Source of the DNA: an uncultured Candidatus Saccharibacteria bacterium
GTDB lineage: Bacteria; Patescibacteriota; UBA1384; JAGGWG01; CAZAJM01
DNA length: 64,000 nucleotides
Reading direction: 5' to 3'
Assembly: GCA_964485625.1 (NCBI GenBank)
Contig: CAZAJM010000003.1
Location: forward strand, 6,349 to 70,348
Part shown: positions 38,730 through 51,091 of the stretch, piece by piece
How the letters are laid out: every line of letters starts with the position of its first letter
Numbering within the stretch: the stretch's first letter is position 1
Notes under the pieces: generated by a model
Told to the model about the DNA's origin: nothing
Databases searched by the model: none
Seen by the model: the letters and a program-made list of their open reading frames with translations, nothing else
Program-made: the position numbers and the translations under genes

Positions 38730-39432
38730 TTTCTAGTTTTAATTTATCAAGAGCATTTTTAGCGGCACTTGCCTCAGCTTTCTGTTTGCTACTTCCTTCT
38801 CCTAGACCAACCTTCTTCTCATCCAAGAAAACTGCTATCTTAAAAACCTTATTATGGTCCGGGCCGGCCTCCGATACAACCTCATAGGCTGGAGTAATGC
38901 CATATTTATCTTGAGCTAATTCTTGAAAATAGGTCTTAGGATCGATATGCTTGCCTTCTTTGATAATAGATTCTAAGTAAGTAATAATTTCCGTTTGGAT
39001 AAATTTCTCCGCCTTCATATAACCTTGGTCTAAATAGATCGCTCCTATCAAGGCCTCAAAAGTACCGGCAAGAATCACTTCCTTCTCTCGGCCACCACTC
39101 TTTTCTTCTCCTTTGCTAAGCCTAAGATAGTTGCCTAAATCTAGCTTATTAGCCGCCTGAGCCAAATTAGAGCCTCTAACTAAGGCCGCTCGCCAGTTGG
39201 TGAGTACCCCCTCTCCTTTCTTTGGATAATTATCGTAGATATAGTCGGTCACTGCCAACTCCAAGACTGCATCACCAAGAAATTCCAACCTCTCATTATG
39301 CTCTATCTTCTTCTCTCGGTTCTCATTAACATATGATCGATGAACAAAAGCCCGCTTAAAAATATCCCTATCTTTAACCTCAATAGAGAAATTATCTTCT
39401 AAATAATCTAGTAAAGTCTTAAGCTTCTTCAT
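38710..39432 (-). CDS. rnc: ribonuclease III
   Basis: Signature ERLEFLGDAVLEL plus a C-terminal dsRBD. Start chosen at the internal Met. The ORF-track Met at 39471 would overlap nusB by 53 nt. Confidence 0.88.
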   Translation of the reverse strand: MKKLKTLLDYLEDNFSIEVKDRDIFKRAFVHRSYVNENREKKIEHNERLEFLGDAVLELAVTDYIYDNYPKKGEGVLTNWRAALVRGSNLAQAANKLDLGNYLRLSKGEEKSGGREKEVILAGTFEALIGAIYLDQGYMKAEKFIQTEIITYLESIIKEGKHIDPKTYFQELAQDKYGITPAYEVVSEAGPDHNKVFKIAVFLDEKKVGLGEGSSKQKAEASAAKNALDKLKLESEETVD

Positions 39433-39886
39433 CTTTCTTTCTCGGCTTATTAATCTTCTCTGACTCCTCACCTTTATGTCTATCTGAGGCCCTAAAAACT
39501 GTGCCTAGAACACCGTTGATAAAAGGAGCAGTATTCTCACCCCCAAACTCCTTGCCAAGCTCCACCGCCTCATCTATAGCTACCTTAGGAGGGATATCCT
39601 CTCTAAATAATAGCTCATAGACTCCAACAGTAAGAATAGCCAAATCGATATTATCGATCTTCTCTAAGGGCCAATCGGGAGCAGCGATCTCAATAGTCTT
39701 ATCGATTTGATCGATATTCTCCTTAATCTCCTTAACACACCGACTAACATAATCATCTTCTAGATTATCTGATGGATGAGTCTCTAAATTCTCTTTGGCT
39801 ATCTCAAAGATATCTTCTTCTTTCTCCTCAAACCGCCATTGATAGACGGTCTGCATTACTACCACTCTTGATTGATGTCTAGACAT
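39419..39886 (-). CDS. nusB: transcription antitermination protein NusB
   Basis: 155 aa, NusB helical fold (MSRHQSRVVVMQTVYQW...). Confidence 0.8.
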   Translation of the reverse strand: MSRHQSRVVVMQTVYQWRFEEKEEDIFEIAKENLETHPSDNLEDDYVSRCVKEIKENIDQIDKTIEIAAPDWPLEKIDNIDLAILTVGVYELLFREDIPPKVAIDEAVELGKEFGGENTAPFINGVLGTVFRASDRHKGEESEKINKPRKKDEEA

Positions 39887-39892
39887 AATTAA

Positions 39893-40078
39893 TTAGTTAG
39901 ATTCTTTGACAATCTCCTCATCTTTGTAATGTCCACAGTTAGGACAGACCTGATGGGGCATCTTCTTCTCTCCACATTCCTGACACTTAGCTAACTGAGC
40001 CATCTTTTTCTTAGAAAAATTGGCCTTCCTTCTTACCTTTCCCTTAGCTTTGGTCGTCTGTTTTTTTGGTTCTGGCAT
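39893..40078 (-). CDS. rpmF: 50S ribosomal protein L32
   Basis: Basic N-terminus with CQECG...CPNCG zinc ribbon. Confidence 0.8.
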   Translation of the reverse strand: MPEPKKQTTKAKGKVRRKANFSKKKMAQLAKCQECGEKKMPHQVCPNCGHYKDEEIVKESN

Positions 40079-40082
40079 GATA

Positions 40083-40571
40083 TTACTTATTATTTATTAA
40101 TTTTTTTAATTTTTGTAACTCAGGATGACCCTTATCTTCTTCCCTACAGTCACAGATCGACTCGTTTAAATTTTGGCCACAGATTTGACAGAGGCCCTTA
40201 CAATCCGACTGGCAGAGCTTCTTAGGAGGAAGCTGGCTGATAAGTTGATCGACTAGAGGCTTTTGGAGATCGACCTGGCCATCTTCATCGATCTCTAGCT
40301 CATCTTCTTCCGGCTGACTGGCAAATACTTGCTCTAGATTGATTTGATAATCACTTATAAACGACTCCAGGCAGCGATCACAAGTCAAACTCGGTTTAAG
40401 ATTAGTCTTAGCTGATATTAGATAGCTACTCTCATCCAACTTGCTAATTTTAATCTCAATCTCGATATCTTGATTAATCTCAATCAAATCATCCTTATAA
40501 TCTAGCCTCCCTTTCTTAATAACTGATCTCTGCCCATTATCGACAAGCTTTTGAGGATTGATCTTAATCAT
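40083..40571 (-). CDS. yceD: YceD/DUF177 family protein (23S rRNA accumulation protein)
   Basis: Conserved position upstream of rpmF. Has the Cys cluster CDRC...CQSDCKGLCQICG. Confidence 0.7.
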   Translation of the reverse strand: MIKINPQKLVDNGQRSVIKKGRLDYKDDLIEINQDIEIEIKISKLDESSYLISAKTNLKPSLTCDRCLESFISDYQINLEQVFASQPEEDELEIDEDGQVDLQKPLVDQLISQLPPKKLCQSDCKGLCQICGQNLNESICDCREEDKGHPELQKLKKLINNK

Positions 40572-40647
40572 CTGATTTTTCCAACTATTATTAACCTACT
40601 CAATCAGTTTAACAGATAAAGAGGTCTCTTTTCAAGACTTGATAGCC

Positions 40648-43071
40648 TCACCCCGTAATTATATTAACTAATTTAGGCGGCAGACCCGGCTTATTCTCTC
40701 TCTCAACTACAATCATATCTCTAACTTCACTGCCGTCAATATGCTTAGCTACATTACCTAAGCTAGCAATACTTTCCTTGATAGTAGTAATATCCTCTTG
40801 TGGGCTTGCTTGATAGAGAGCCCTTTTCTTACCATTAACCTGAACTACAACCGGGTAATTATCTTGCCTTAAACTAACTTTTGATGGTTTTGGCCAAGAA
40901 CTATTAAAAATAGTTGATTCATTACCAATCTCCTGCCACAGCTCTTCGCAGATATGAGGAAAGACGATTGAATTTATAATTATATATTTCTCAACTACCA
41001 ACTTGCTTAATTTACTATCTTTCTCAATCGAATTTAGAAATTTCATCAAGGAAGAGACGATAGTATTTAACTGAAAATTCTCCAGGTCCTCCTCAACTGA
41101 CTTGATTAGCCTATTAATTCTAGCTTCCTGACCCTCTATAGCTTCATCTACTATCTCTTTGCTACTTAGGGTGCTATGAAGACGATCTAGATACTTCCTG
41201 ACCCCCTCAATTCCACCATCATTCCACTCCTTGCTCTGCTCAGGCGGGCCGATAAAGAGCTCGTAACCTCTTAAAGAGTCTCTTCCATACTTTTCTACCA
41301 ACTTATCAGGCGAGACAACGTTACCGACCGACTTACTCATCTTCTTACCATCTCGGTAGATCATGCCCTGATTAAACAGAGATTTAAAGGGCTCGTTAAA
41401 TTCAATATGGCCTAACTTGTAGAGTGCCTTGGTGATAAAACGAGCATAGAGCAAGTGAAGCACGGCATGCTCAACCCCACCAACATATTTATCAACCGGT
41501 AACCACTTTTTCATTCTATCTTTATCAAATGGCTTGTTATTCAGGTTAGGATTAGGGTAGCGCAGATAGTACCAACTTGAGTCAACAAAGGTGTCCATAG
41601 TATCTGTCTCTCTTTCCGCCTGTCCACCGCATTTAGGGCACGAACAGTTAACAAACTCCTTATTCTTAGCCAGGGGAGAGCGACCGGACTTAGATGGCTT
41701 AAAGTCATCCATCTCAGGTAGCTTAATTGGTAGGTTCTCTTCTTTTTCGGCTACCACCCCACACTTAGGGCAATAGACGATTGGGATTGGCGTTCCCCAA
41801 TATCTTTGGCGACTAATGAGCCAGTCGTTAAGTTTGTAATTAACTCTAAACTCGGCCATATTATCTTTAGCTAAATCCTTAGCAATGGTCTCGCGAGCAT
41901 TCTTGCTCGCCTCACCGTCATAATCAGAGCTATTTACCAAAACTCCTTCACCCTCGTAGGCAGAATTAAGGTTTTCTAGCTTACCATTAGAGCTAATTAC
42001 TTGGATAATATTTAGGTTGTATTTTTTGGCAAACTCAAAATCTCGTTGATCATGGGCCGGTACTGCCATAATAGCGCCTGTACCATACTCTTCTAGCACA
42101 TAATCAGAGATCCAAATAGGAATCCTCTTGCCATTGACCGGATTAATAGCATAACTACCGGTAAAGACACCGGTCTTTTTCTTGCTTAGCTTGCGCTCTT
42201 TGATCGATTTAGACTTGGCCTTTTCCAAATAATCTTTAACTTCACTAACTTGCTTAGAAGTAGTCAATTTATCTACCAGATCAGACTCTGGAGCTAATGC
42301 TAGGAAGGTAGCGCCAAAGAGAGTATCGGCCCTAGTGGTAAACACTTCAATTAGCTCATCTTTATCTTCAACCTTAAACTTAAGCAGTACACCCTGGCTC
42401 CTACCAATCCAGTTTTTCTGCATCTTCTTTACTTTCTCCGGCCAATCTAGCCCATCTATATCACTATTTAACTGATCGGCAAAGTTAGTTATCTTAAAAA
42501 ACCACTGATTTAGTTTCTTGGTAGTAACCTCACTATCACAGCGCTCACAGAGACCTCCAACAACCTGCTCGTTTGCCAAGACCGTCTTACAACTAGGACA
42601 AAAATTTACAGGCGCCTCTTTACGATAGGCTAAACTCGCCTTAAATAGCTCCAAGAAAAGCCATTGAGTCCACTGATAGTAGTCTGGGGAAGAGGAGTTT
42701 ATCTCTAGGCTCCAATCATACATCCCTCCAATCTCTGTTAATTGGCGAGTGAAATTAGCAATAGCTTTGGTGGTATATTCCTTAGGATGAGTATTGTTCT
42801 TGATAGCAGCATTCTCTGCCGGCAGACCAAAAGCATCCCAACCCATGGGATGAAGCACCTCATAGCCACGAAGCTTCATATACCGGCTCCAAACGTCACT
42901 ATAGACATAGCCCGACCAGTGACCGACATGCAAGCCTTCTCCGGAAGGATAGGGGAACATATCCAGACAATAATATGGCTTACTAGTAGACAAATCTACT
43001 TTATGGCAACTGTTATCAGACCAGTAGTTCTGCCACTTCTCTTCAATTTTTTTATGATCATATTTATTCAT
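40648..43071 (-). CDS. leuS: leucyl-tRNA synthetase
   Basis: 807 aa. Has HIGH-type HVGH, KMSKS, the CP1 editing domain and zinc-binding Cys pairs. Confidence 0.93.
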   Translation of the reverse strand: MNKYDHKKIEEKWQNYWSDNSCHKVDLSTSKPYYCLDMFPYPSGEGLHVGHWSGYVYSDVWSRYMKLRGYEVLHPMGWDAFGLPAENAAIKNNTHPKEYTTKAIANFTRQLTEIGGMYDWSLEINSSSPDYYQWTQWLFLELFKASLAYRKEAPVNFCPSCKTVLANEQVVGGLCERCDSEVTTKKLNQWFFKITNFADQLNSDIDGLDWPEKVKKMQKNWIGRSQGVLLKFKVEDKDELIEVFTTRADTLFGATFLALAPESDLVDKLTTSKQVSEVKDYLEKAKSKSIKERKLSKKKTGVFTGSYAINPVNGKRIPIWISDYVLEEYGTGAIMAVPAHDQRDFEFAKKYNLNIIQVISSNGKLENLNSAYEGEGVLVNSSDYDGEASKNARETIAKDLAKDNMAEFRVNYKLNDWLISRQRYWGTPIPIVYCPKCGVVAEKEENLPIKLPEMDDFKPSKSGRSPLAKNKEFVNCSCPKCGGQAERETDTMDTFVDSSWYYLRYPNPNLNNKPFDKDRMKKWLPVDKYVGGVEHAVLHLLYARFITKALYKLGHIEFNEPFKSLFNQGMIYRDGKKMSKSVGNVVSPDKLVEKYGRDSLRGYELFIGPPEQSKEWNDGGIEGVRKYLDRLHSTLSSKEIVDEAIEGQEARINRLIKSVEEDLENFQLNTIVSSLMKFLNSIEKDSKLSKLVVEKYIIINSIVFPHICEELWQEIGNESTIFNSSWPKPSKVSLRQDNYPVVVQVNGKKRALYQASPQEDITTIKESIASLGNVAKHIDGSEVRDMIVVERENKPGLPPKLVNIITG

Positions 43072-43141: not shown

Positions 43142-43900
43142 AATATTATGAGTGAGTGTGTTGGGCCGAGGGGAGGAGGAGTGTAAATAGTATCATTGAC
43201 GAGGGTTTCCCCAAGTCACATTCAAATTCACACTCCTCTCCCGCTCAGCTCCTAGATTTCCGGACTTTTTTTTAGTTTACCCCTTGACCACATAACTGCT
43301 GCCAGTAGTTGATGTCCGGTATCAACTTAGGCATATGCGCTCAAGAAGCTTGACAGCTCAGATTTACACCCAATCGGGCTGCCCGCAATTGCAGGCTCTG
43401 GCTGTCAATTCCTTAGGATGATTGCCGGGAAGGGGAGAAGCGAGATTAGGTCACTACCCCGTTGTATCTTCGATCGGGGCGCACCCTTTGTGATCTCACT
43501 TCCCCTTCCCTAGGCCCTGCTTCGTCGTCCTCCTTTTATTCCCGGGTAAGCAGGGTAAGCCCAGGAGGAGGAAATTCGGAAGGATGATTGCCCGAGACGG
43601 GTCATGGCGTGGTGAATCGCTCGCCGCCTCGGAAGACAGTTTTGTCCCCCACCTGGTACCCTCAATGGGGTTTTCTCCAGGTGAGGCTACGCTCTGCCTT
43701 TCCAGAAGCCCATGGGCCCTCCCCACGGCTGTAGTCCCCACTCCTCTTCGCCCGAGGAGTGGGGGGGGGTCGACGACTCATACGTCATCCCCTCGTGCGC
43801 TACCTACTTCATACGCATCATCCTTTCTCGCCCTCCTTCTGGTGCGTCATGCCCCAGGAGGGCCTATCTAATAACTTTATGCCTCCCTTAACTGAGTCAG
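43140..43900. other. GC-rich ORF-free island (about 760 nt), a candidate large structured ncRNA or remnant of foreign DNA
   Basis: Its composition is visibly much more GC-rich than the flanking AT-rich DNA. It has long purine/pyrimidine runs (GGGGGGGGG, GGAGGAGGAG), many hairpins and an internal repeat aggatgattgcc at about 43407 and 43580. Only short ORFs occur in any frame. Confidence 0.5.
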
Positions 43901-44052: not shown

Positions 44053-44271
44053 TTAGCTCATTTCAGTTGACTCGCCGCCACCTGAGAATAGTTTTACTAA
44101 TACCCAAAGTGCAGAAAGACCAACAAGAGCGTAGATTACTCGAGATAGAGTAGACATGTCGCCAAAAATGGCAGCAACTAGATCCCAGCTGAAGAAACCA
44201 ACTAGACCCCAGTTAAGACCACCTACAACTACCAAGATGTAAGCTATCCAGTCAAGAGTAGTTTTTTGCAT
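44053..44271 (-). CDS. DUF378-family small membrane protein
   Basis: 72 aa. ...LDWIAYILVVVGGLNWGLVGFFSWDLVAAIFG... matches the DUF378 consensus. Confidence 0.7.
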   Translation of the reverse strand: MQKTTLDWIAYILVVVGGLNWGLVGFFSWDLVAAIFGDMSTLSRVIYALVGLSALWVLVKLFSGGGESTEMS

Positions 44272-44395
44272 AATTACTCCCTTTCTATGGATTAATTTCT
44301 ATAATAACGATCAATTACATTATACTATATCTATTTAACAAATGACAATATTGTGATATATTAGTCCTAGAAATAGAAAAATAATATATTAAACC

Positions 44396-44671
44396 ATGCT
44401 ATCAAAACTACCAATTGATTTAGACAAAGTTTCTGATGAGAACATCGACAAAGAAATTGCCAGAGCAGGTATAATTGCAGAGTATGATGCTATTAGTTTC
44501 TATGAACAGATGGCAGCTAAAGCTAAAGATTCTAAGCTCAAAAAAGTCCTTATGGCAGTTGCTAAGGAAGAGAAGGAGCATGTAGGTGAGTTTCAGGCCA
44601 TGCTTCTAAAATGGGACAAAGAGCAGATTAGTGAAATGAAAGAAGGTGAGAAAGAAGTAGAGGAGATGTAG
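44396..44671 (+). CDS. encapsulated-ferritin-like (EncFtn/ferritin-like diiron) small protein, no obvious targeting peptide
   Basis: ...IAEYDAISFYEQM...AVAKEEKEHVGEFQAMLLKW... matches the EncFtn E/ExxH motif pattern. Confidence 0.6.
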   Translation: MLSKLPIDLDKVSDENIDKEIARAGIIAEYDAISFYEQMAAKAKDSKLKKVLMAVAKEEKEHVGEFQAMLLKWDKEQISEMKEGEKEVEEM

Positions 44672-44682
44672 AACAAACTAAA

Positions 44683-44714
44683 AAGACCGGTTGTGTAAAA
44701 ATCGGTCTTTTTTA
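44683..44714 (+). terminator. rho-independent terminator
   Basis: agaccgg-ttgtgtaaaaat-cggtct followed by ttttttatt. Confidence 0.75.
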
Positions 44715-44736
44715 TTCCATTAATTAATACTAATAT

Positions 44737-44788
44737 TATGGGTTCTTCACCCCATTATTTTTATATAATTAAAAAATGGAGCTAATGG
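44737..44788. repeat. 52-bp perfect direct repeat copy 1 (tRNA-Ala 3' 12 nt plus 40-nt trailer); att-like
   Basis: Identical to 44919-44970. On the minus strand it reads 5'-CCAUUAGCUCCA followed by the trailer. Confidence 0.85.
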
Positions 44789-44918
44789 CCCGCCCGGCAA
44801 TCGCCTGACGGCTCAAGCCGGATGGCGGACGGGGATTTGAAGCTGTTGGCCCTACTTGAAGTTTAAACTTAATCTCAACCGATATACTCAAAAACAGAAC
44901 AAATTCTATCACCTCAGG

Positions 44919-44970
44919 TATGGGTTCTTCACCCCATTATTTTTATATAATTAAAAAATGGAGCTAATGG
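44919..44970. repeat. 52-bp perfect direct repeat copy 2 (overlaps the 3' end of the intact tRNA-Ala)
   Basis: tatgggttcttcaccccattatttttatataattaaaaaatggagctaatgg. Confidence 0.85.
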
Positions 44971-45031
44971 GATTTGAACCCATGGCCTCGTGAATGCCAT
45001 TCACGCGCTCTACCAACTGAGCTATAGCCCC
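44959..45031 (-). tRNA. tRNA-Ala (anticodon GGC), CCA not encoded
   Basis: Minus strand: GGGGCUAUAGCUCAGUUGGUAGAGCGCGUGAAUGGCAUUCACGAGGCCAUGGGUUCAAAUCCCAUUAGCUCCA. It folds as a cloverleaf with the G3:U70 Ala identity pair, anticodon loop AUGGCAU and T-loop UUCAAAU. Confidence 0.9.
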
Positions 45032-45082
45032 ATATTATCTATGAGGTTATTTTAGCTTAAATTTGCTATTCTGTCAAAGGTT

Positions 45083-47299
45083 TCAATATCTTGCCAGTTG
45101 ATACTGATCTCTAATAATTTCTGCCAAGGTTGTCTCACCACCATACCTTATTCTTTTGAGTTTCTTAGGTTTAACATCGATGACTTTTCTCTGTGATTTA
45201 GGCAGTTGTCTTCTAATCTTTCTTAGTTGTTCTCTGGTCTTAATATAGTGACGATACTGTTTCTCAATCACCCAGATTGTTCCGCTATTAGTGGCACTGA
45301 TCAGGCTACCATTTTTATGTACTAATATTCTTCTGTTTGGAATATCTCTAAAAAGGTCAGGATCGACCTCTTTTATGTCTCTCCAACGGTATCCTCTCAT
45401 TCTGAAAACTTTTGGTGAAAGTACTGGGTAATTTCTACAACCGAACTTATTTGAACGATAGACCGCTACAGTCCCACCACCTTTAGGTCTAATCTTATCG
45501 TTGTAATTTAATAATTTATCAGCTTTCTGACAAGTAAGTTCTTCTGGAGTTAACTCATTTTGTGGTGGATCATCATCTTCTGGCTCTTCCTCAGGCACGT
45601 CTGTTACTGTAATAATAATTGTTTCATCATCAGTATCATCACCATCACTTACTATGAAATTAATACTATAATCTCCAGATTGCTCATTGGTTGGCGTCCA
45701 AGAAAACAATCCTGTCTCGCTATTCAAATTAGCTCCATCGGGTAATCCAGATGATGAAAAAGTTAGTAAGTCTTCGATATCATCATCACTGGCGTTTAAG
45801 CTAAATTCTAATAGAGCCTCTTCTTCTATTGATTTATCACCTACAGCAGTTAAAACTGGTGCTGAGTTTAATATCGTGGTATCAACTTGATCGCTTGGAC
45901 CATTTAATATTCCATCGGTTGGAGTTGCTTCGCAACGCCAAAGGTCGTCCTTAGAAGTATTGTCTTTATTTAGGACAGGACCGGCAAGCTCAGGCTGCAA
46001 AACATCATTCTTGTACCAATTGTATAGATAAGTAACTAAGCCGCCATCAGGATCATTGGAGCCAGAAGCTTCGCAGTATAAATCATCAGTAGTATTAGGC
46101 AATTCTGGTGTTATTACTACACTGGTAGGCTGAGTAGGTGGGCTATTTTCACCTCCATCTCCAATATCAATCGAGGTGTACATGGTGCTACCATCTTCAG
46201 GTATATTTACTGGAGTATCATTATCAGTAAAAATATTATCTTGATAATTAATTTCAAAACCATCTAAGGTGCCCGAGTTTCCGTCACTAATTAAATCCTC
46301 TGAATAAAAATACCAGTTATTATCAGTATCATTGGGAGGCATGTAGTCTAATTGATCTGTTAAATCATGTGACGCTGATATGTTAGCATTGTCAGCACCA
46401 GCCATGTTATATTTTAGGGACTGCCATGTTGGGTCAGAGGAATTACCAACACCTAGGCCGTATCTAATCTGATTTTTAACGGGGTGAGTTATGTCAATAT
46501 TTGCCCAGACCTGAGGGACATAACCAATTTTATCCGTATCGACCCATGCTTCAATCATATAGTTTTCAACAAAATCATAGGATAGCCACGAATAACCATC
46601 ACCGCTCCAACTGCTGCCCCATGAGTTAACAAATTTAAAAGCTCCTGTCTGAGGGTTTCCTTCAGAGTCAGTATAACTGCGATCATCATCATAACCAACA
46701 ATTGTAACTGCATGGCCACCCCTAAGACTACCTTCGGGATAAGCATGTACATCATTGCCACCAGTCGCTGATAGTTGATCATCATATGATGGTACTCCGG
46801 CAACTAATACTCCACCTGCATCAAGACGTTGTTTAAGGTTGTTAATATCAGTCATAAACGCTTCATGATAAATAATATCATTACTTTCACTACGATAGTA
46901 CATTGCATTCTGCCATTGTGCTTGGTTTGGCCAGGTACGATAATCAACATTACCCATTAATTCATAGGTTGGGGTGCCGGTTTCCTTAAGCATATTAAAG
47001 GATCCGCCTATAGACATGCCTTGGCTTGAATCACCTCCGTTAGCTTGATTCCAGATGAATGTAGGGCTGAACTGATGGTCAGTAGTATCTACCGACCAGC
47101 CGTGTTCCTGTTTTTCAACAAAAGTTTTGTAATAATAGCCGGTTGCCCACCCAACACAAGAGCCGTAACTACCCTGACTTCTTACAGGTGGCATATCAGC
47201 GGAGAGATCAACTGAGGCAGCATTAACATTACCGGCAATAAAGGTCAGAAAAACCGTAATAGTAATTACTAGTGTATATTTCAAAATATTCTTATTCAT
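45083..47299 (-). CDS. secreted papain-like (C1A) cysteine peptidase with putative Ig (He_PIG/cadherin-like) domain and basic C-terminal domain
   Basis: Signal peptide. Catalytic Cys block QGSYGSCVGWATGYY, His block GGHAVTIVGYDD and Asn/Trp block NSWGSSWSGDGY. A middle ...TGLFSWTPT... Ig-like repeat. The C-terminal roughly 170 aa are K/R-rich. The start overlaps the upstream gene in ATGAATAA. Confidence 0.75.
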   Translation of the reverse strand: MNKNILKYTLVITITVFLTFIAGNVNAASVDLSADMPPVRSQGSYGSCVGWATGYYYKTFVEKQEHGWSVDTTDHQFSPTFIWNQANGGDSSQGMSIGGSFNMLKETGTPTYELMGNVDYRTWPNQAQWQNAMYYRSESNDIIYHEAFMTDINNLKQRLDAGGVLVAGVPSYDDQLSATGGNDVHAYPEGSLRGGHAVTIVGYDDDRSYTDSEGNPQTGAFKFVNSWGSSWSGDGYSWLSYDFVENYMIEAWVDTDKIGYVPQVWANIDITHPVKNQIRYGLGVGNSSDPTWQSLKYNMAGADNANISASHDLTDQLDYMPPNDTDNNWYFYSEDLISDGNSGTLDGFEINYQDNIFTDNDTPVNIPEDGSTMYTSIDIGDGGENSPPTQPTSVVITPELPNTTDDLYCEASGSNDPDGGLVTYLYNWYKNDVLQPELAGPVLNKDNTSKDDLWRCEATPTDGILNGPSDQVDTTILNSAPVLTAVGDKSIEEEALLEFSLNASDDDIEDLLTFSSSGLPDGANLNSETGLFSWTPTNEQSGDYSINFIVSDGDDTDDETIIITVTDVPEEEPEDDDPPQNELTPEELTCQKADKLLNYNDKIRPKGGGTVAVYRSNKFGCRNYPVLSPKVFRMRGYRWRDIKEVDPDLFRDIPNRRILVHKNGSLISATNSGTIWVIEKQYRHYIKTREQLRKIRRQLPKSQRKVIDVKPKKLKRIRYGGETTLAEIIRDQYQLARY

Positions 47300-48149
47300 C
47301 TTCGATCTCCAGTCCAAGTGGATACTCTATCCTCACTCCCTGAGAAGCTAAGTAAAAATCCTCTAACCAAGTATTATTTTTATTATCTTTTACTGCTACC
47401 TCTATTGAAGGCGGAGTATCAGTTGATACTTTTTCGGATATGTCCAAATAATAGCTTATAGTTTTAGTTTTTTGACCCTGGTGGTCAATAGAAGAAATAG
47501 TTCTCTTATTTCCATCTACAAAAAATACTAAGTCATAGCGATCCGAAGCCTCGATTACTAAATCCCTTGCTTTTGCGTTGCCAATATTTTTTAGTTTCAA
47601 GTCTAACCTGATTCTTTCGCCAGGATTTGCGATTTGATCTTGGTTACCTAAAGTGCCGCTTTGACTGCCGTCAACAACTCTAATATTTTGTAGTTTAATG
47701 ATTGGAGCACCAACGACATTTAACTGCATATCAACTACAAGAGGTTCTTCTAATTGTTGAGAATTTAAATAAAGATAGGTTTGATGTTTACCTACCGGAA
47801 GTTTTTTAGCATTAATAACTAATTCGATCTTACTGCTATCTCCTGGACTTATAGTTCTTTGACTGGGCAAAATATTCAACCAATTAACCACAGCTTCTTT
47901 ATTATCTGCAGTCTTTTTGATATTAAATTTGAAATCGAGCTCAGATTGATTTAAGATTGACAGGTAAGTAGAACTATGGCTACCTTGGTTTGCTTTAACT
48001 TTGATCTCATTATTATAGGAGATTTCTTCTGGATTTATGACCTCTTGAGCAGAAATATCCAATTTAATATTGGTGCCATCTAAGAGAATAGTAATAATGA
48101 CCAACACAATAAAGCTAACAATTACTAAATACCAAACCTTTTTGCGCAT
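47292..48149 (-). CDS. hypothetical membrane-anchored extracellular protein (operon partner of the protease)
   Basis: N-terminal TM followed by 260 aa of predicted beta-rich ectodomain. Translationally coupled to the protease gene. Confidence 0.5.
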   Translation of the reverse strand: MRKKVWYLVIVSFIVLVIITILLDGTNIKLDISAQEVINPEEISYNNEIKVKANQGSHSSTYLSILNQSELDFKFNIKKTADNKEAVVNWLNILPSQRTISPGDSSKIELVINAKKLPVGKHQTYLYLNSQQLEEPLVVDMQLNVVGAPIIKLQNIRVVDGSQSGTLGNQDQIANPGERIRLDLKLKNIGNAKARDLVIEASDRYDLVFFVDGNKRTISSIDHQGQKTKTISYYLDISEKVSTDTPPSIEVAVKDNKNNTWLEDFYLASQGVRIEYPLGLEIEDE

Positions 48150-48194
48150 AAATAATTTATAACTTAATATTATTATAAAACATTATACCACAAA

Positions 48195-49106
48195 ATGCAC
48201 ATTTCTGTCTTAGACAAGGAAATTATTGAATATTTTGAGCTGGATAAAAACAGAACAATAGTTGACGCAACAGTTGGCTTGGGTGGTCATACTAGAATAA
48301 TATTAGAATATTGTGATAACTTTAAAGTTATTGGCATAGATCAAGACAAAGATGCATTAAATTACGCCAGTAGGAACTTAATTAACTACAGAGATAGAGT
48401 AATATTAAAACATGGTAATTTTTCAAATTTAGCCAGTTTAGTTAAAAAACCAGTTGACGGAGTACTCTTTGATCTTGGGGTCTCATCGATGCAACTAGAT
48501 AATAAAGAGAGAGGCTTCTCATTTAATAAAGAAGCTAAGCTTGATATGAGAATGAATAGAGAGCAAGAACTAACTGCCAAGAAAGTAATTAACAGTTACC
48601 CAGCTAGCAAACTAGTTGAGATTATCAAAGAGTATGGTGAAGAGAGATGGGCAAATAAAATCGCAGAAAGAATTGTACAAACTAGAAAATTAGATAGCAT
48701 AGAGACTACCAAAGAACTAGCTGATATAGTAAGATCGACAATTCCTAAAAAGTTCTGGCCAAAAAATATTGAGCCAGCCACCAAAACTTTCCAGGCCATT
48801 AGAATAGAGGTAAACCAAGAACTAGATAATCTAAAAGAGGGCCTAGATCAAGCGCTTAAAATACTTAAGCCCAGGGGTAGAGTAGTGGTAATCTCATTTC
48901 ATTCTCTTGAAGACAGGATTGTCAAGAATAAATTTAAATATTGGGCGAAGGATTGTATCTGCCCACCCGACTACCCAATCTGTAAATGTGACAAAGAGAA
49001 GGAGGTTAAGATCTTAACCAAAAAGCCAATTAGAGCTAATCAAGAAGAGATCGAAAACAATCCTCGGGCTAGAAGTGCCAAACTTAGAGCTTGTGAGAAG
49101 ATTTAA
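48195..49106 (+). CDS. rsmH: 16S rRNA (cytosine1402-N4)-methyltransferase RsmH/MraW
   Basis: SAM-binding motif ATVGLGGH and a conserved RsmH C-terminus. Confidence 0.85.
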   Translation: MHISVLDKEIIEYFELDKNRTIVDATVGLGGHTRIILEYCDNFKVIGIDQDKDALNYASRNLINYRDRVILKHGNFSNLASLVKKPVDGVLFDLGVSSMQLDNKERGFSFNKEAKLDMRMNREQELTAKKVINSYPASKLVEIIKEYGEERWANKIAERIVQTRKLDSIETTKELADIVRSTIPKKFWPKNIEPATKTFQAIRIEVNQELDNLKEGLDQALKILKPRGRVVVISFHSLEDRIVKNKFKYWAKDCICPPDYPICKCDKEKEVKILTKKPIRANQEEIENNPRARSAKLRACEKI

Positions 49107-49813
49107 GTTAGGATATCAGCAAAATCTATGATTTTTGGGTTATCTAGATCCCCAAAATTTGTTGACCAGAAGCCATAGGACGAATGATCTCCAAATTGGC
49201 CCTGTGCTTTCATGCCATGATCTGAGAGTACTAATAACTTATCGACTTTTTTGTTAGCAACCTTGCCAATTTCATCTAGGTCTTGATAGATCATCTTCAT
49301 CAGGCTGTTATTACCAAAACTAAGATGCCCTACTAGATCGGCTAAGCCAAAGTATCCTAATAGAAAATCGTAATCCTTATCCAGACTCTCTAAAAACTCC
49401 TCTTTTATCTCTTTATGGTGATCAAAGGCCAGCTTATTGTACTTTGACCTTATCTCTTCTTTTTTACTACTATCTTCTGTCTCAAAGAAGCTTTTTAGAA
49501 GCTCTCTTTGTTTGTGATGCTGATCTGTATCATAGTTAAATCCCGGCAAATCAATAATATGAGGTTTTTCAAACTTAGAGAAAAATGTTTCTTTCAAAGG
49601 CCACTTGGTATTCCACATCTCTTTATCGCCTTTAGCTAGAATCTCTTCTTCTCTATTCTTCCCTGTCATAAAGCTAGACCAGAGCACCATTGTTCTTGGC
49701 TCACTAAACTCAGAAATATCAGTCTTACCGTAATCAACTTGTTTTAAATTTTCGCTACCGTATTCTTCGACTTTCTTTATCTCTAGCGCGTCAATAGCAA
49801 ATACTACTAACAT
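49103..49813 (-). CDS. alkaline-phosphatase-superfamily (NPP/metalloenzyme-like) protein, short form
   Basis: ADLVGH and LSDHGM motifs resemble the C-terminal metal-binding motifs of iPGM (NPDMVGHTG / TADHGN) and NPP (SDHGM). Only 236 aa, with an atypical N-terminal half. Confidence 0.4.
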   Translation of the reverse strand: MLVVFAIDALEIKKVEEYGSENLKQVDYGKTDISEFSEPRTMVLWSSFMTGKNREEEILAKGDKEMWNTKWPLKETFFSKFEKPHIIDLPGFNYDTDQHHKQRELLKSFFETEDSSKKEEIRSKYNKLAFDHHKEIKEEFLESLDKDYDFLLGYFGLADLVGHLSFGNNSLMKMIYQDLDEIGKVANKKVDKLLVLSDHGMKAQGQFGDHSSYGFWSTNFGDLDNPKIIDFADILT

Positions 49814-49828
49814 AACTTAATTACTTAA

Positions 49829-51091
49829 TTATATTTTAGTGATGATCCCACCGGCCACTGTGTCGCTTCTTTCTAAAACAAATCTACCAAGCTCAGGAAC
49901 CTCATTGAAGTCATCTACCACTATCTCATCGGCTGTCTCAATCTCTACACTGGCAACTTGGCGGTTCTCAATAATCTCCCCACCTTCATTAACAACTTCT
50001 AGAGTAGAGGAGTCAATTATTCTGTCAAACTTAGTAACCTCGGCCATCACAGATTGACTGGCAAGCTTAAATAGAAGACGCTCACCTTTTTTCATCGGCT
50101 CTTTATCCATCCAGAAAAGGTTGGCTTGGATTGTATTGGTAGATTTTGGCCTATCTTTACTATCGCTGATCACGTTACCTCTATCAACAAAAACCTTATC
50201 TTTACTAACTATGCCGATACTATCACCCGCGATAGCTCCATCTATCTCTTCTTTGTACTTAAGCACCTCATTGACTTCTGTCTCTTCTCCGCTAGGCAAG
50301 ATTACCATCTTATCACCTTTCTTTATTACTCCAGAAGAGATTCTACCGGCAATGATGCGCTTATCCCACTTATATACATCTTGAACAGGCAACCTCAAAG
50401 GCTTATTTAACATCGGTTCTTCTATCTCAAACTGGTCTAAAGCTTCCAATACCGTTGGGCCAGAGTACCAGTCGGTTTTTTTAGATTTAACAGCAACGTT
50501 CTCTCCCTCTTTAGCACTAATTGGCACTACTTGTTTTGGCTCTATCTCAATTTTATCTAAAAATTTAGCCAGCTCTTTTTTAACGGCTTTAAATCTACTC
50601 TCCTTGTAATCTACTAGATCCATCTTATTGACTACTACAATTACTTGGTCTAAGCCAAGCATAGAGAGGATATAGGCATGCCGCCTGGTCTGTTCTTGCA
50701 AGCCTTCCTCGGCGTCAACTATTAAGATAGCCGCTTCAGCTTGAGATGCACCCGTAATCATGTTTTTTACAAACTCAACATGACCAGGAGCATCGATAAT
50801 AGTATACTCGCGCTTCTTAGTTCTAAAGAAGGTCTGAGCAGTATCGATAGTAATTCCTTGATCCCTCTCTTCTTGTAAGTGGTCCATGACGTAGCCAAAC
50901 TCCATCTCTTTACCTAAGGCATCACAGATCGACTTAATCTCTTCATACTTCCCTTCAGGAAGAGAATCGGTATCATAGAATAGTCGGCCAATTAAGGTGG
51001 ACTTACCATGATCGACATGACCAGAAAGAACCAGTTTTAGATTTTCATCAACTTTATTTGCTTCCTCAGTTTTAATTTTCTCTTTATTCAT
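49829..51091 (-). CDS. cysN: sulfate adenylyltransferase subunit 1-like GTPase (CysN/NodQ family)
   Basis: [14 protein letters not shown], ...[35 protein letters not shown]... and NKMD align closely to CysN. Confidence 0.8.

Follow-up and report, generated by a model that had tools for sequence, protein, structure and literature searches.

A duplicated tRNA-Ala(GGC) 3' end downstream of the intact gene: a probable recombinase-derived scar in a small-genome bacterial lineage

Integration sites in tRNA genes are reportedly divided into sublocation classes, as set out by Williams in Nucleic Acids Res in 2002. Tandem tRNA pseudogenes and partial duplications homogenised by gene conversion are a general phenomenon, and small GC-rich palindromic insertions occur in AT-rich genomes in the form of REP/BIME-type elements, yeast mitochondrial GC clusters and the double-hairpin elements of Allomyces. 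In Prochlorococcus, islands and tycheposons carry partial tRNAs, left by degenerated tRNA-targeting elements (10.1101/2020.12.28.424599). Here, a locus that recalls these systems was analyzed in a 64-kb stretch of contig CAZAJM010000003.1 (hereafter the window), where the 3' end of a tRNA-Ala(GGC) gene and its trailer are perfectly repeated a short distance downstream of the intact gene. With a probability of roughly 55%, the distant copy is read as the 3' end of a partial tandem duplicate of this gene, old and decayed, and as a recombinase-derived scar whose last 52 nt were recently homogenised or re-duplicated.

The gene for tRNA-Ala(GGC) is the sole tRNA gene detected in the window by ARAGORN and Rfam; it carries G3:U70 and does not encode the CCA end. 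A search for repeats, and a second one allowing up to three mismatches, found the 52-mer TATGGGTTCTTCACCCCATTATTTTTATATAATTAAAAAATGGAGCTAATGG exactly twice in the window (Table 1). Both copies are identical at 52 of 52 positions, start 182 nt apart and enclose 130 nt; no such match was obtained in 100 shuffled sequences, the expected number being zero. According to the boundaries drawn by ARAGORN and Rfam, the 52-mer consists of tRNA positions 62-73 (CCATTAGCTCCA, the last 12 nt) and 40 nt of trailer. Perfect repeat and composition had both been proposed in an earlier reading of the locus (hereafter the sequence-only reading), and both were confirmed. Copy 2 belongs to the live gene, and copy 1 is located 130 nt beyond it, downstream in the sense of the tRNA. 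As in an attachment (att) pair, a 3' portion of a tRNA is directly repeated and the tRNA itself is left intact (71.9 bits).

That the second copy might be an artefact had been raised in the same reading, and was addressed with independent Logan assemblies of two sequencing runs, built on a k=31 graph from whose contigs the multiplicity of a loop is not readable. Contig L001 stops 31 nt into copy 1, and contigs L082 and L083 stop 31 nt into copy 2. Since these breaks fall exactly at the repeat edges, as they do for a 52-mer present in two contexts at k=31, the repeat is not peculiar to one assembly, and faulty assembly is an unlikely source of it. Exact searches found the repeat neither in IMG/VR nor in JGI metagenome contigs, the GC-rich piece described below not in IMG/VR, and the tRNA sequence not among GTDB genomes.

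Read in the sense of the tRNA, the DNA between the copies ends in ...TTCAAGTAGGGCCAACAGCTTCAAATC, followed by a 45-nt GC-rich stretch and then by CCATTAGCTCCA and the trailer. Ahead of the GC-rich stretch lies a degenerate segment resembling tRNA positions 37-63. When the 45 nt were taken out, the alignment to the live gene became continuous over positions 37-73, scoring 40 versus a maximum of 37 in 2000 shuffles; the similarity has the orientation of the live gene and, as in a pseudogene, reaches past the perfect repeat. Identity to the live gene switches abruptly at the GC-rich hairpin, from 20 of 27 positions before it (7/27 mismatches) to 52 of 52 after it (Fisher p=0.0003). Most of the segment between the copies is an AT-rich spacer (spacer X), for which local alignment gave no support beyond position 37 as the decayed 5' half of a pseudo-tRNA.

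The 45-nt hairpin has a 2-nt CC ambiguity at its insertion junction and a fold of -26.1 kcal/mol, with z=-2.2 on the tRNA-sense strand versus -0.1 on the opposite strand; blastn and nhmmer found no second copy in the window. Where the sequence-only reading had seen a GC-rich, tRNA-like fragment, the tRNA-like stretch was recovered, but the GC-rich part proved to be this separate hairpin. Each repeat copy also contains a shorter hairpin (hairpin H), whose plus strand resembles tRNA positions 38-67 (local alignment, p=0.018), that is, an inverted T-arm-like piece; a T run follows it on the plus strand and it scores as terminator-like. Neither ARAGORN nor Rfam, truncated-end searches included, recognised a tRNA in the spacer or pseudo-copy, and the 130 nt between the repeats contain no open reading frame (ORF). 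The pseudo-copy is unable to make a tRNA and most likely inert.

Further identities were considered for this DNA and rejected. These were a second tRNA in the spacer (ARAGORN, Rfam); a transfer-messenger RNA (tmRNA), permuted or not, for which ARAGORN gave nothing and the best tmRNA_permuted match reached 15 bits against a threshold of 47 bits (E=3) and fell on the end of the true tRNA; any further Rfam family, in spacer or pseudo-copies alike (no match, also in end-truncated searches); and a dispersed GC-rich palindromic mini-element of REP/MITE type, of which blastn and nhmmer found one copy in the window and one homolog in relatives L170/L171.

Relatives were found through homologs of LeuRS, EncFtn and MraW, and six related lineages have the locus. 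Nearest to the window is the L086 lineage (JGI sample 3300033148), with LeuRS at 80% identity. A partial 3' copy was present downstream of the live tRNA-Ala(GGC) in four of the four lineages checked that have the gene in the orientation of the window. Its boundaries differ, the copies comparable to that of the window spanning positions 20-70 in L180 and positions 46-73 in L170, L174 and L175. In L180, whose LeuRS and EncFtn are respectively 74% and 90% identical to those of the window, the live tRNA has the window orientation and the pseudo-copy starts 13 nt after it (score 52.5 versus a shuffle maximum of 31). Seven contigs, from different samples, agree exactly in this arrangement. Such a shared structure, with partial 3' copies in all four ingroup lineages, is the outcome that the sequence-only reading had itself named as one that would refute its proposal.

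In the L170 group (L170, L171 and L173, with 76% identity in the LeuRS N-terminus), 46 nt separate the live tRNA from a downstream copy of positions 46-73, whose T loop carries a 29-nt insert of two hairpins. Next in line after this pseudo-copy are homologs of hairpin H and of spacer X, with the terminator of EncFtn beyond them. Window positions 44837-44927, comprising spacer X and hairpin H, aligned with L170 2729-2818 at 76% identity over 91 nt (blastn, E=2e-11), and a homolog of the 45-nt hairpin was detected at L170 3124-3165 (Smith-Waterman score 32 versus a maximum of 27 in 3000 shuffles; nhmmer). As spacer X and the GC-rich hairpin both have homologs in L170, neither is unique foreign DNA. 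The almost completely excised foreign element suspected between the repeats was therefore not borne out; the att-like footprint held as regards a same-orientation tRNA 3' fragment downstream of the live gene, but not as regards an integrase or foreign DNA between the repeats.

In L170, the homolog of the 45-nt hairpin is located upstream of the live tRNA, directly after a stranded native 5' end (TAGCCCCATATACTC; TAGCCCCATATTATC in the window). In this region (L170 3056-3216, plus strand), the native 5' end TAGCCCCATATACTC and its upstream flank are parted from the live tRNA by a 95-nt insertion, which begins with the hairpin homolog. Because the native 5' end was split off by this insertion, fragments of an earlier copy, 5' and 3', stand on either side of the live gene.

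L174 and L175 have the same block of positions 46-73 with the same 29-nt insert as L170. Their live tRNA has a different T arm, AGGAGTTCGAATCTCCT, and stands beside a displaced native-type 3' end, the pattern that an incoming att site would leave on taking the place of the native 3' end. The pseudo-tRNA blocks of L170 (2879-2936) and L174 (968-1025) are identical at 56 of 58 positions and have sharp edges and unalignable flanks, EncFtn DNA being 81% identical; their 29-nt insert includes a cUUCGg-type loop, and the block was not found in IMG/VR. Two explanations are at hand: selection on the block, or a recent imprint by the same mobile element in both lineages. A GC-rich hairpin is present inside the partial copy in these two lineages and absent in L180. 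The trailers of the relatives are unrelated to one another.

By contrast to the ingroup, the outgroup lineages L088 and L089 (LeuRS 62%) each have one clean tRNA-Ala(GGC) without repeats; a single clean gene was seen only there, and it is inverted. The inversion separates the outgroup (L088 5643-5716, L089 6490-6564) from the ingroup (window 44959-45031, L170, L174, L180), and the inverted segment, of about 100-150 bp, contains the tRNA only, the orientation of EncFtn, MraW and LeuRS being unchanged. The contexts of EncFtn homologs at 73-76% identity (P0127, P0129) were unrelated to the locus. Sequence comparison among these lineages supports a rearrangement hot spot in the clade, with breakpoints clustered in the T arm.

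Contig L087, whose EncFtn is 98% identical to that of L174, contains no complete tRNA. A tyrosine recombinase gene is followed there by 58 nt including a GC hairpin and then by TTCAAATCCCATTAGCTCCA in the window orientation, a fragment that starts at T54 and spans the T loop to the 3' end; homology to L174 ends exactly at the EncFtn stop codon. The gene (L087 310-1122) encodes a 270-aa Xer/XerA/integron-integrase-like tyrosine recombinase that falls below every curated cutoff and matches PHROG integrase families. Proteins 60-90% identical to it were found in 80 metagenome loci (L090-L169), in which housekeeping genes are only 31-42% identical to those of the window, evidencing horizontal mobility of the recombinase gene among very distant hosts. 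In eight distinct loci a complete tRNA, convergent with the gene, lies 120-400 nt downstream, and in many loci a long imperfect palindrome comes right after the stop codon. No direct repeats of tRNA ends flank the recombinase gene in nine loci, and a regex search of the 80 loci found no tRNA 3' fragment beside it other than that of L087. A search for an integrase, which the sequence-only reading had proposed for the genome, was made in the 64-kb window by tblastn with the L087 recombinase and gave no match.

According to the favoured reading, a pseudo-tRNA (positions ~37-73 plus trailer) would lie in the 3' trailer region of the live gene, and the 45-nt GC-rich hairpin would have gone into it at the junction of T stem and acceptor. 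A tyrosine recombinase acting site-specifically on the T arm and 3' end of this tRNA would have produced the duplication and the later rearrangements; the rearrangements in question are the hairpin insertions in or near the T loop, the inverted T-arm-like hairpin, the inversion of the tRNA relative to the outgroup and the hybrid T arm of one relative. In that case, the att-type scars at the locus would be those of integrative elements now lost by deletion. The scar is probably recombinase-derived because of the 3'-fragment geometry, the T-arm breakpoints, the hybrid T arm of L174, the recombinase of L087 and the inversion between clades. The 40 identical bases of trailer cannot be old, given that relatives have unrelated trailers, and the 52/52 identity may be due to recent gene conversion from the live gene or to recent re-duplication; a conversion tract would stop at the heterologous hairpin.

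A number of findings weigh against this reading. No integrase or foreign gene is present between or beside the repeats in the window, nor is an integrase at the locus in any relative with a complete tRNA-Ala, that of L087 standing beside a bare 3' fragment. Moreover, the L087 recombinase gene is parallel to the tRNA fragment, whereas elsewhere the nearby tRNA is convergent and flanking direct repeats are missing. Only 13-130 nt separate the live tRNA from the partial copy, and in the window this DNA is largely common to L170, so that the reading has to assume an integrated element and its almost complete loss, perhaps several times over. An att identity block would not usually consist so largely of host-specific trailer (40 of 52 identical bases), and the similarity over positions 37-63 is only moderately significant. 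An inert old scar should not be as conserved as the 56/58 block of L170 and L174, and gene conversion as the cause of the repeat identity is something that we infer.

Purely local duplication, the strongest of the alternatives though a doubtful one, would require no mobile element: in an ancestor, replication would have slipped or switched template in the hairpin-rich 3' region of the tRNA, giving a partial tandem copy of tRNA and trailer, and indels, hairpin insertion and gene conversion would have come later. It accords with the fact that nothing foreign lies between the copies and that the spacers, of 13-130 nt, are partly common between lineages; with a repeat that runs 40 nt into host trailer; with the simple adjacent tandem partial copy of L180; and with a window devoid of integrase by tblastn. 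However, the downstream fragments are direct-orientation 3' portions with breakpoints clustered in the T arm, and L170 also has a short 5' fragment upstream; the live tRNA of L174 has a swapped T arm beside a native-type 3' end; in L087 a mobile recombinase gene abuts a fragment starting at T54; and the tRNA is inverted between clades. Neither the bias to 3' fragments and the T arm, nor the T-arm swap, the L087 recombinase or the inversion is predicted by slippage, which argues against local duplication.

It is unlikely, though conceivable, that the tRNA-Ala trailer contains a selected RNA or DNA module, made up of the GC-rich hairpin and a mimic of the acceptor 3' strand (...AGCU-CCA) or pseudo T arm, and co-transcribed to the shared terminator. 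Such a module could act as a trailer-derived small RNA, as a decoy for tRNA-Ala-binding enzymes, as a processing or termination element, or as a dedicated site on which the mobile Xer-like recombinases of the clade land or are decoyed, so that the live tRNA is spared. The greater stability of the hairpin on the tRNA-sense strand fits this proposal, as do the 56/58 conservation of the L170/L174 block with its cUUCGg-type loop amid unalignable flanks, the perfect upkeep of the 52 nt in the window, and the placing of the region ahead of the sole strong terminator that follows the tRNA. In the window and in L170, a short upstream AGCU can also pair with the AGCU of the acceptor strand, leaving CCA unpaired, a weak but recurrent feature. 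By contrast, insert position, insert sequence and extent of the copy differ in every lineage, L180 lacks the hairpin, and in L170 the homolog of the 45-nt hairpin stands on the other side of the tRNA. The window hairpin and this homolog are about 70% identical, no better than neutral spacer, and their stems pair in different registers, so that they give no sign of covariation. No Rfam family matched, and helices of 4 bp are weak evidence.

Still less probable is an att pair that is live or dates from very recent times. The 182-bp unit would be what is left of a small non-autonomous element that still integrates and excises by means of the 52-nt identity and a recombinase encoded elsewhere in the genome. 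Perfect identity of the copies while the trailers of relatives are unrelated would be explained in this way; the graph loop in two runs is also expected from a population mixed for the 182-bp unit, and a mobile recombinase family is present in the clade. Against it, L170 has chromosomal DNA homologous to the spacer at this very locus, the window has no recombinase, and exact searches placed the repeat in neither IMG/VR nor JGI metagenome contigs, nor the hairpin in IMG/VR. Least credible of all is a repeat falsely duplicated or mis-joined in assembly, for although a short de Bruijn loop leaves the multiplicity to the assembler, the Logan unitigs of both runs enter each copy from outside and stop after 31 nt, meaning that the 52-mer has two left and two right contexts in the reads, and relatives show comparable structures.

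Table 1. Coordinates of features at the tRNA-Ala(GGC) locus, in positions of the window
Feature	Position	Strand	Evidence
Functional tRNA-Ala(GGC)	44959..45031	-	Rfam RF00005, 71.9 bits (threshold 29 bits); ARAGORN
Repeat copy 2: tRNA positions 62-73 and 40-nt trailer of the live gene	44919..44970	-	Repeat search
Repeat copy 1: positions 62-73 of the pseudo-copy and 40-nt trailer, including a second hairpin H (44738-44755)	44737..44788	-	Repeat search; terminator-like scan
GC-rich hairpin of 45 nt, inserted into the pseudo-copy at tRNA position 61/62	44789..44833	-	Length; fold
Degenerate part of the pseudo-copy, tRNA positions 37-63 (TTCAAGTAGGGCCAACAGCTTCAAATCCC), ~74% identity to the live gene	44832..44860	-	Local alignment, p=0.008
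AT-rich spacer X, common to relative L170	44837..44918	-	blastn
Hairpin H within copy 2, ATGGG..CCCAT, stem = tRNA T stem	44920..44937	.	Terminator-like scan; fold
Promoter-like site TTGACA-17-TAAAAT, 11/12 consensus matches, just upstream of the tRNA	45049..45077	-	Consensus scan only; putative function
Bidirectional terminator hairpin GACCG..CGGTC with A/T runs at its sides	44680..44714	.	Sequence; Rfam alignments; putative function

The promoter-like site in Table 1 sits in the gap (45032-45082) between the tRNA and the stop codon of a gene for a 738-aa peptidase. Judged from its sequence, this strong sigma-70-like match would be placed to drive the tRNA and a trailer of about 300 nt as far as the terminator hairpin, at which transcription of plus-strand EncFtn and of the minus-strand tRNA unit would both end.

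The window is core bacterial chromosome. Its genes include LeuRS, YceD, NusB, MraW and an EF-Tu-like GTPase (Pfam), and a long series of short ORFs in one orientation has the appearance of a ribosomal-protein operon. Among named organisms, Patescibacteria have the LeuRS nearest to that of the window, at 56-57% identity; in GTDB, a scan with LeuRS reached no further than about 50%, and there is therefore no close reference genome. Among ten neighbouring proteins (39419-43071 and 44053-51091), Pfam revealed only core or surface proteins. With the exception of L180, the order of EncFtn, DUF378 and LeuRS is kept in ingroup and outgroup, whatever the state or orientation of the tRNA. This synteny indicates that these genes are not the cargo of an insertion at tRNA-Ala, contrary to the suggestion that EncFtn, DUF378 and the adjacent GC-rich island had been delivered in that way. 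In L180 (5482-6231), a DUF5667 gene takes the place of DUF378, which is present in all other relatives, and the GC-rich island is missing.

Differences in gene content were also observed beside the tRNA. EncFtn is intact (91 aa) in the window, L089, L170, L174, L180 and L087; in L088 (5775-5906) the EncFtn-like gene is cut down to a C-terminal remnant of 43 codons. A pair of genes for papain-like peptidase and Ig-domain proteins (738 aa and 285 aa, minus strand) adjoins the tRNA at window positions 45083-48149. It is found in L088 as well (47% and 32% identity) and is absent in L089, L170, L174 and L180, where MraW abuts the tRNA region; the pair is a presence/absence polymorphism.

The GC-rich island (about 54% GC) is a non-coding segment at window positions 43149-43900, between DUF378 and LeuRS, whose minus strand is LeuRS-sense. 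It contains no convincing ORF and has no Rfam match. The LeuRS-sense strand is strongly structured, with minimum free energy z-scores of -9.5 (tool run) and -7.6 (separate shuffles). The same slot is GC-rich and structured in L170 (840 nt, z=-8.1), L089 (780 nt) and L088 (1.77 kb); the island is absent in L180 (slot of 311 nt, 29% GC) and in L087, and window and L170 islands align only in patches. Judging by its sequence, the island could be an undescribed large structured RNA, a LeuRS leader or an ORF-less element. A link between the GC-rich hairpin of the pseudo-copy and the island was rejected, their only shared stretch being 10 nt, at chance level; the match in composition claimed by the sequence-only reading found no counterpart in significant similarity.

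The feature is real and its mechanism is known in kind: it is a tRNA 3'-end duplication scar, a further instance of this class. Partial copies of tRNA 3' ends are the debris usually found where tRNA genes recombine, and the working gene is intact here, so that the import of the locus is small at face value. Its use is in part corrective: annotation of EncFtn, DUF378 and the GC-rich island as island cargo, or of the locus as a prophage or island boundary, should be avoided. Two aspects could weigh more on further study. In a small-genome lineage that is probably of the Patescibacteria, repeated rearrangement (inversion, hybrid T arm, hairpin insertions) is limited to the T arm and 3' end of one tRNA, and these rearrangements, together with a recombinase moving between very distant hosts, make a tractable case of DNA exchange in small genomes. 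Neutral decay does not explain the pseudo-tRNA block conserved in L170 and L174.

Comparison with the described systems shows partial likeness to each. The 45-nt imperfect hairpin, like the 29-nt insert with two mini-hairpins of L170 and L174, is placed in AT-rich non-coding DNA in the manner of GC-rich palindromic insertions, a likeness that is a lead and not a test. Unlike those elements, it occurs once in the 64-kb window with one L170 homolog at the same locus, and shows no multi-copy dispersal, terminal repeats or target duplication beyond the 2-nt ambiguity. The window copy also resembles a tandem tRNA pseudogene in being adjacent, co-oriented and truncated, with a decayed 5' part and one perfectly identical segment, and in escaping ARAGORN and Rfam; it differs in being broken by a GC-rich hairpin and accompanied by an inverted T-arm-like hairpin, next to a live gene that is inverted relative to the outgroup.

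As for tRNA-integrated elements, the window departs from attL/attR pairs in the absence of element, integrase and cargo between the repeats, whose 130 nt are mostly native DNA common to a relative, in an identity block that is mostly trailer (40/52 nt), and in an arrangement that appears to be clade-wide and not polymorphic. Like attL and attR, however, the tRNA 3' fragment of the window is directly repeated downstream of an intact gene. The likeness extends to the scars of such elements, with breakpoints in the T loop and T arm in relatives, fragments of different age at one tRNA, and a mobile tyrosine recombinase beside one fragment (L087). In these respects, the tRNA-Ala scar would match the degenerated elements and partial tRNAs described at tRNA integration hot spots (10.1101/2020.12.28.424599).

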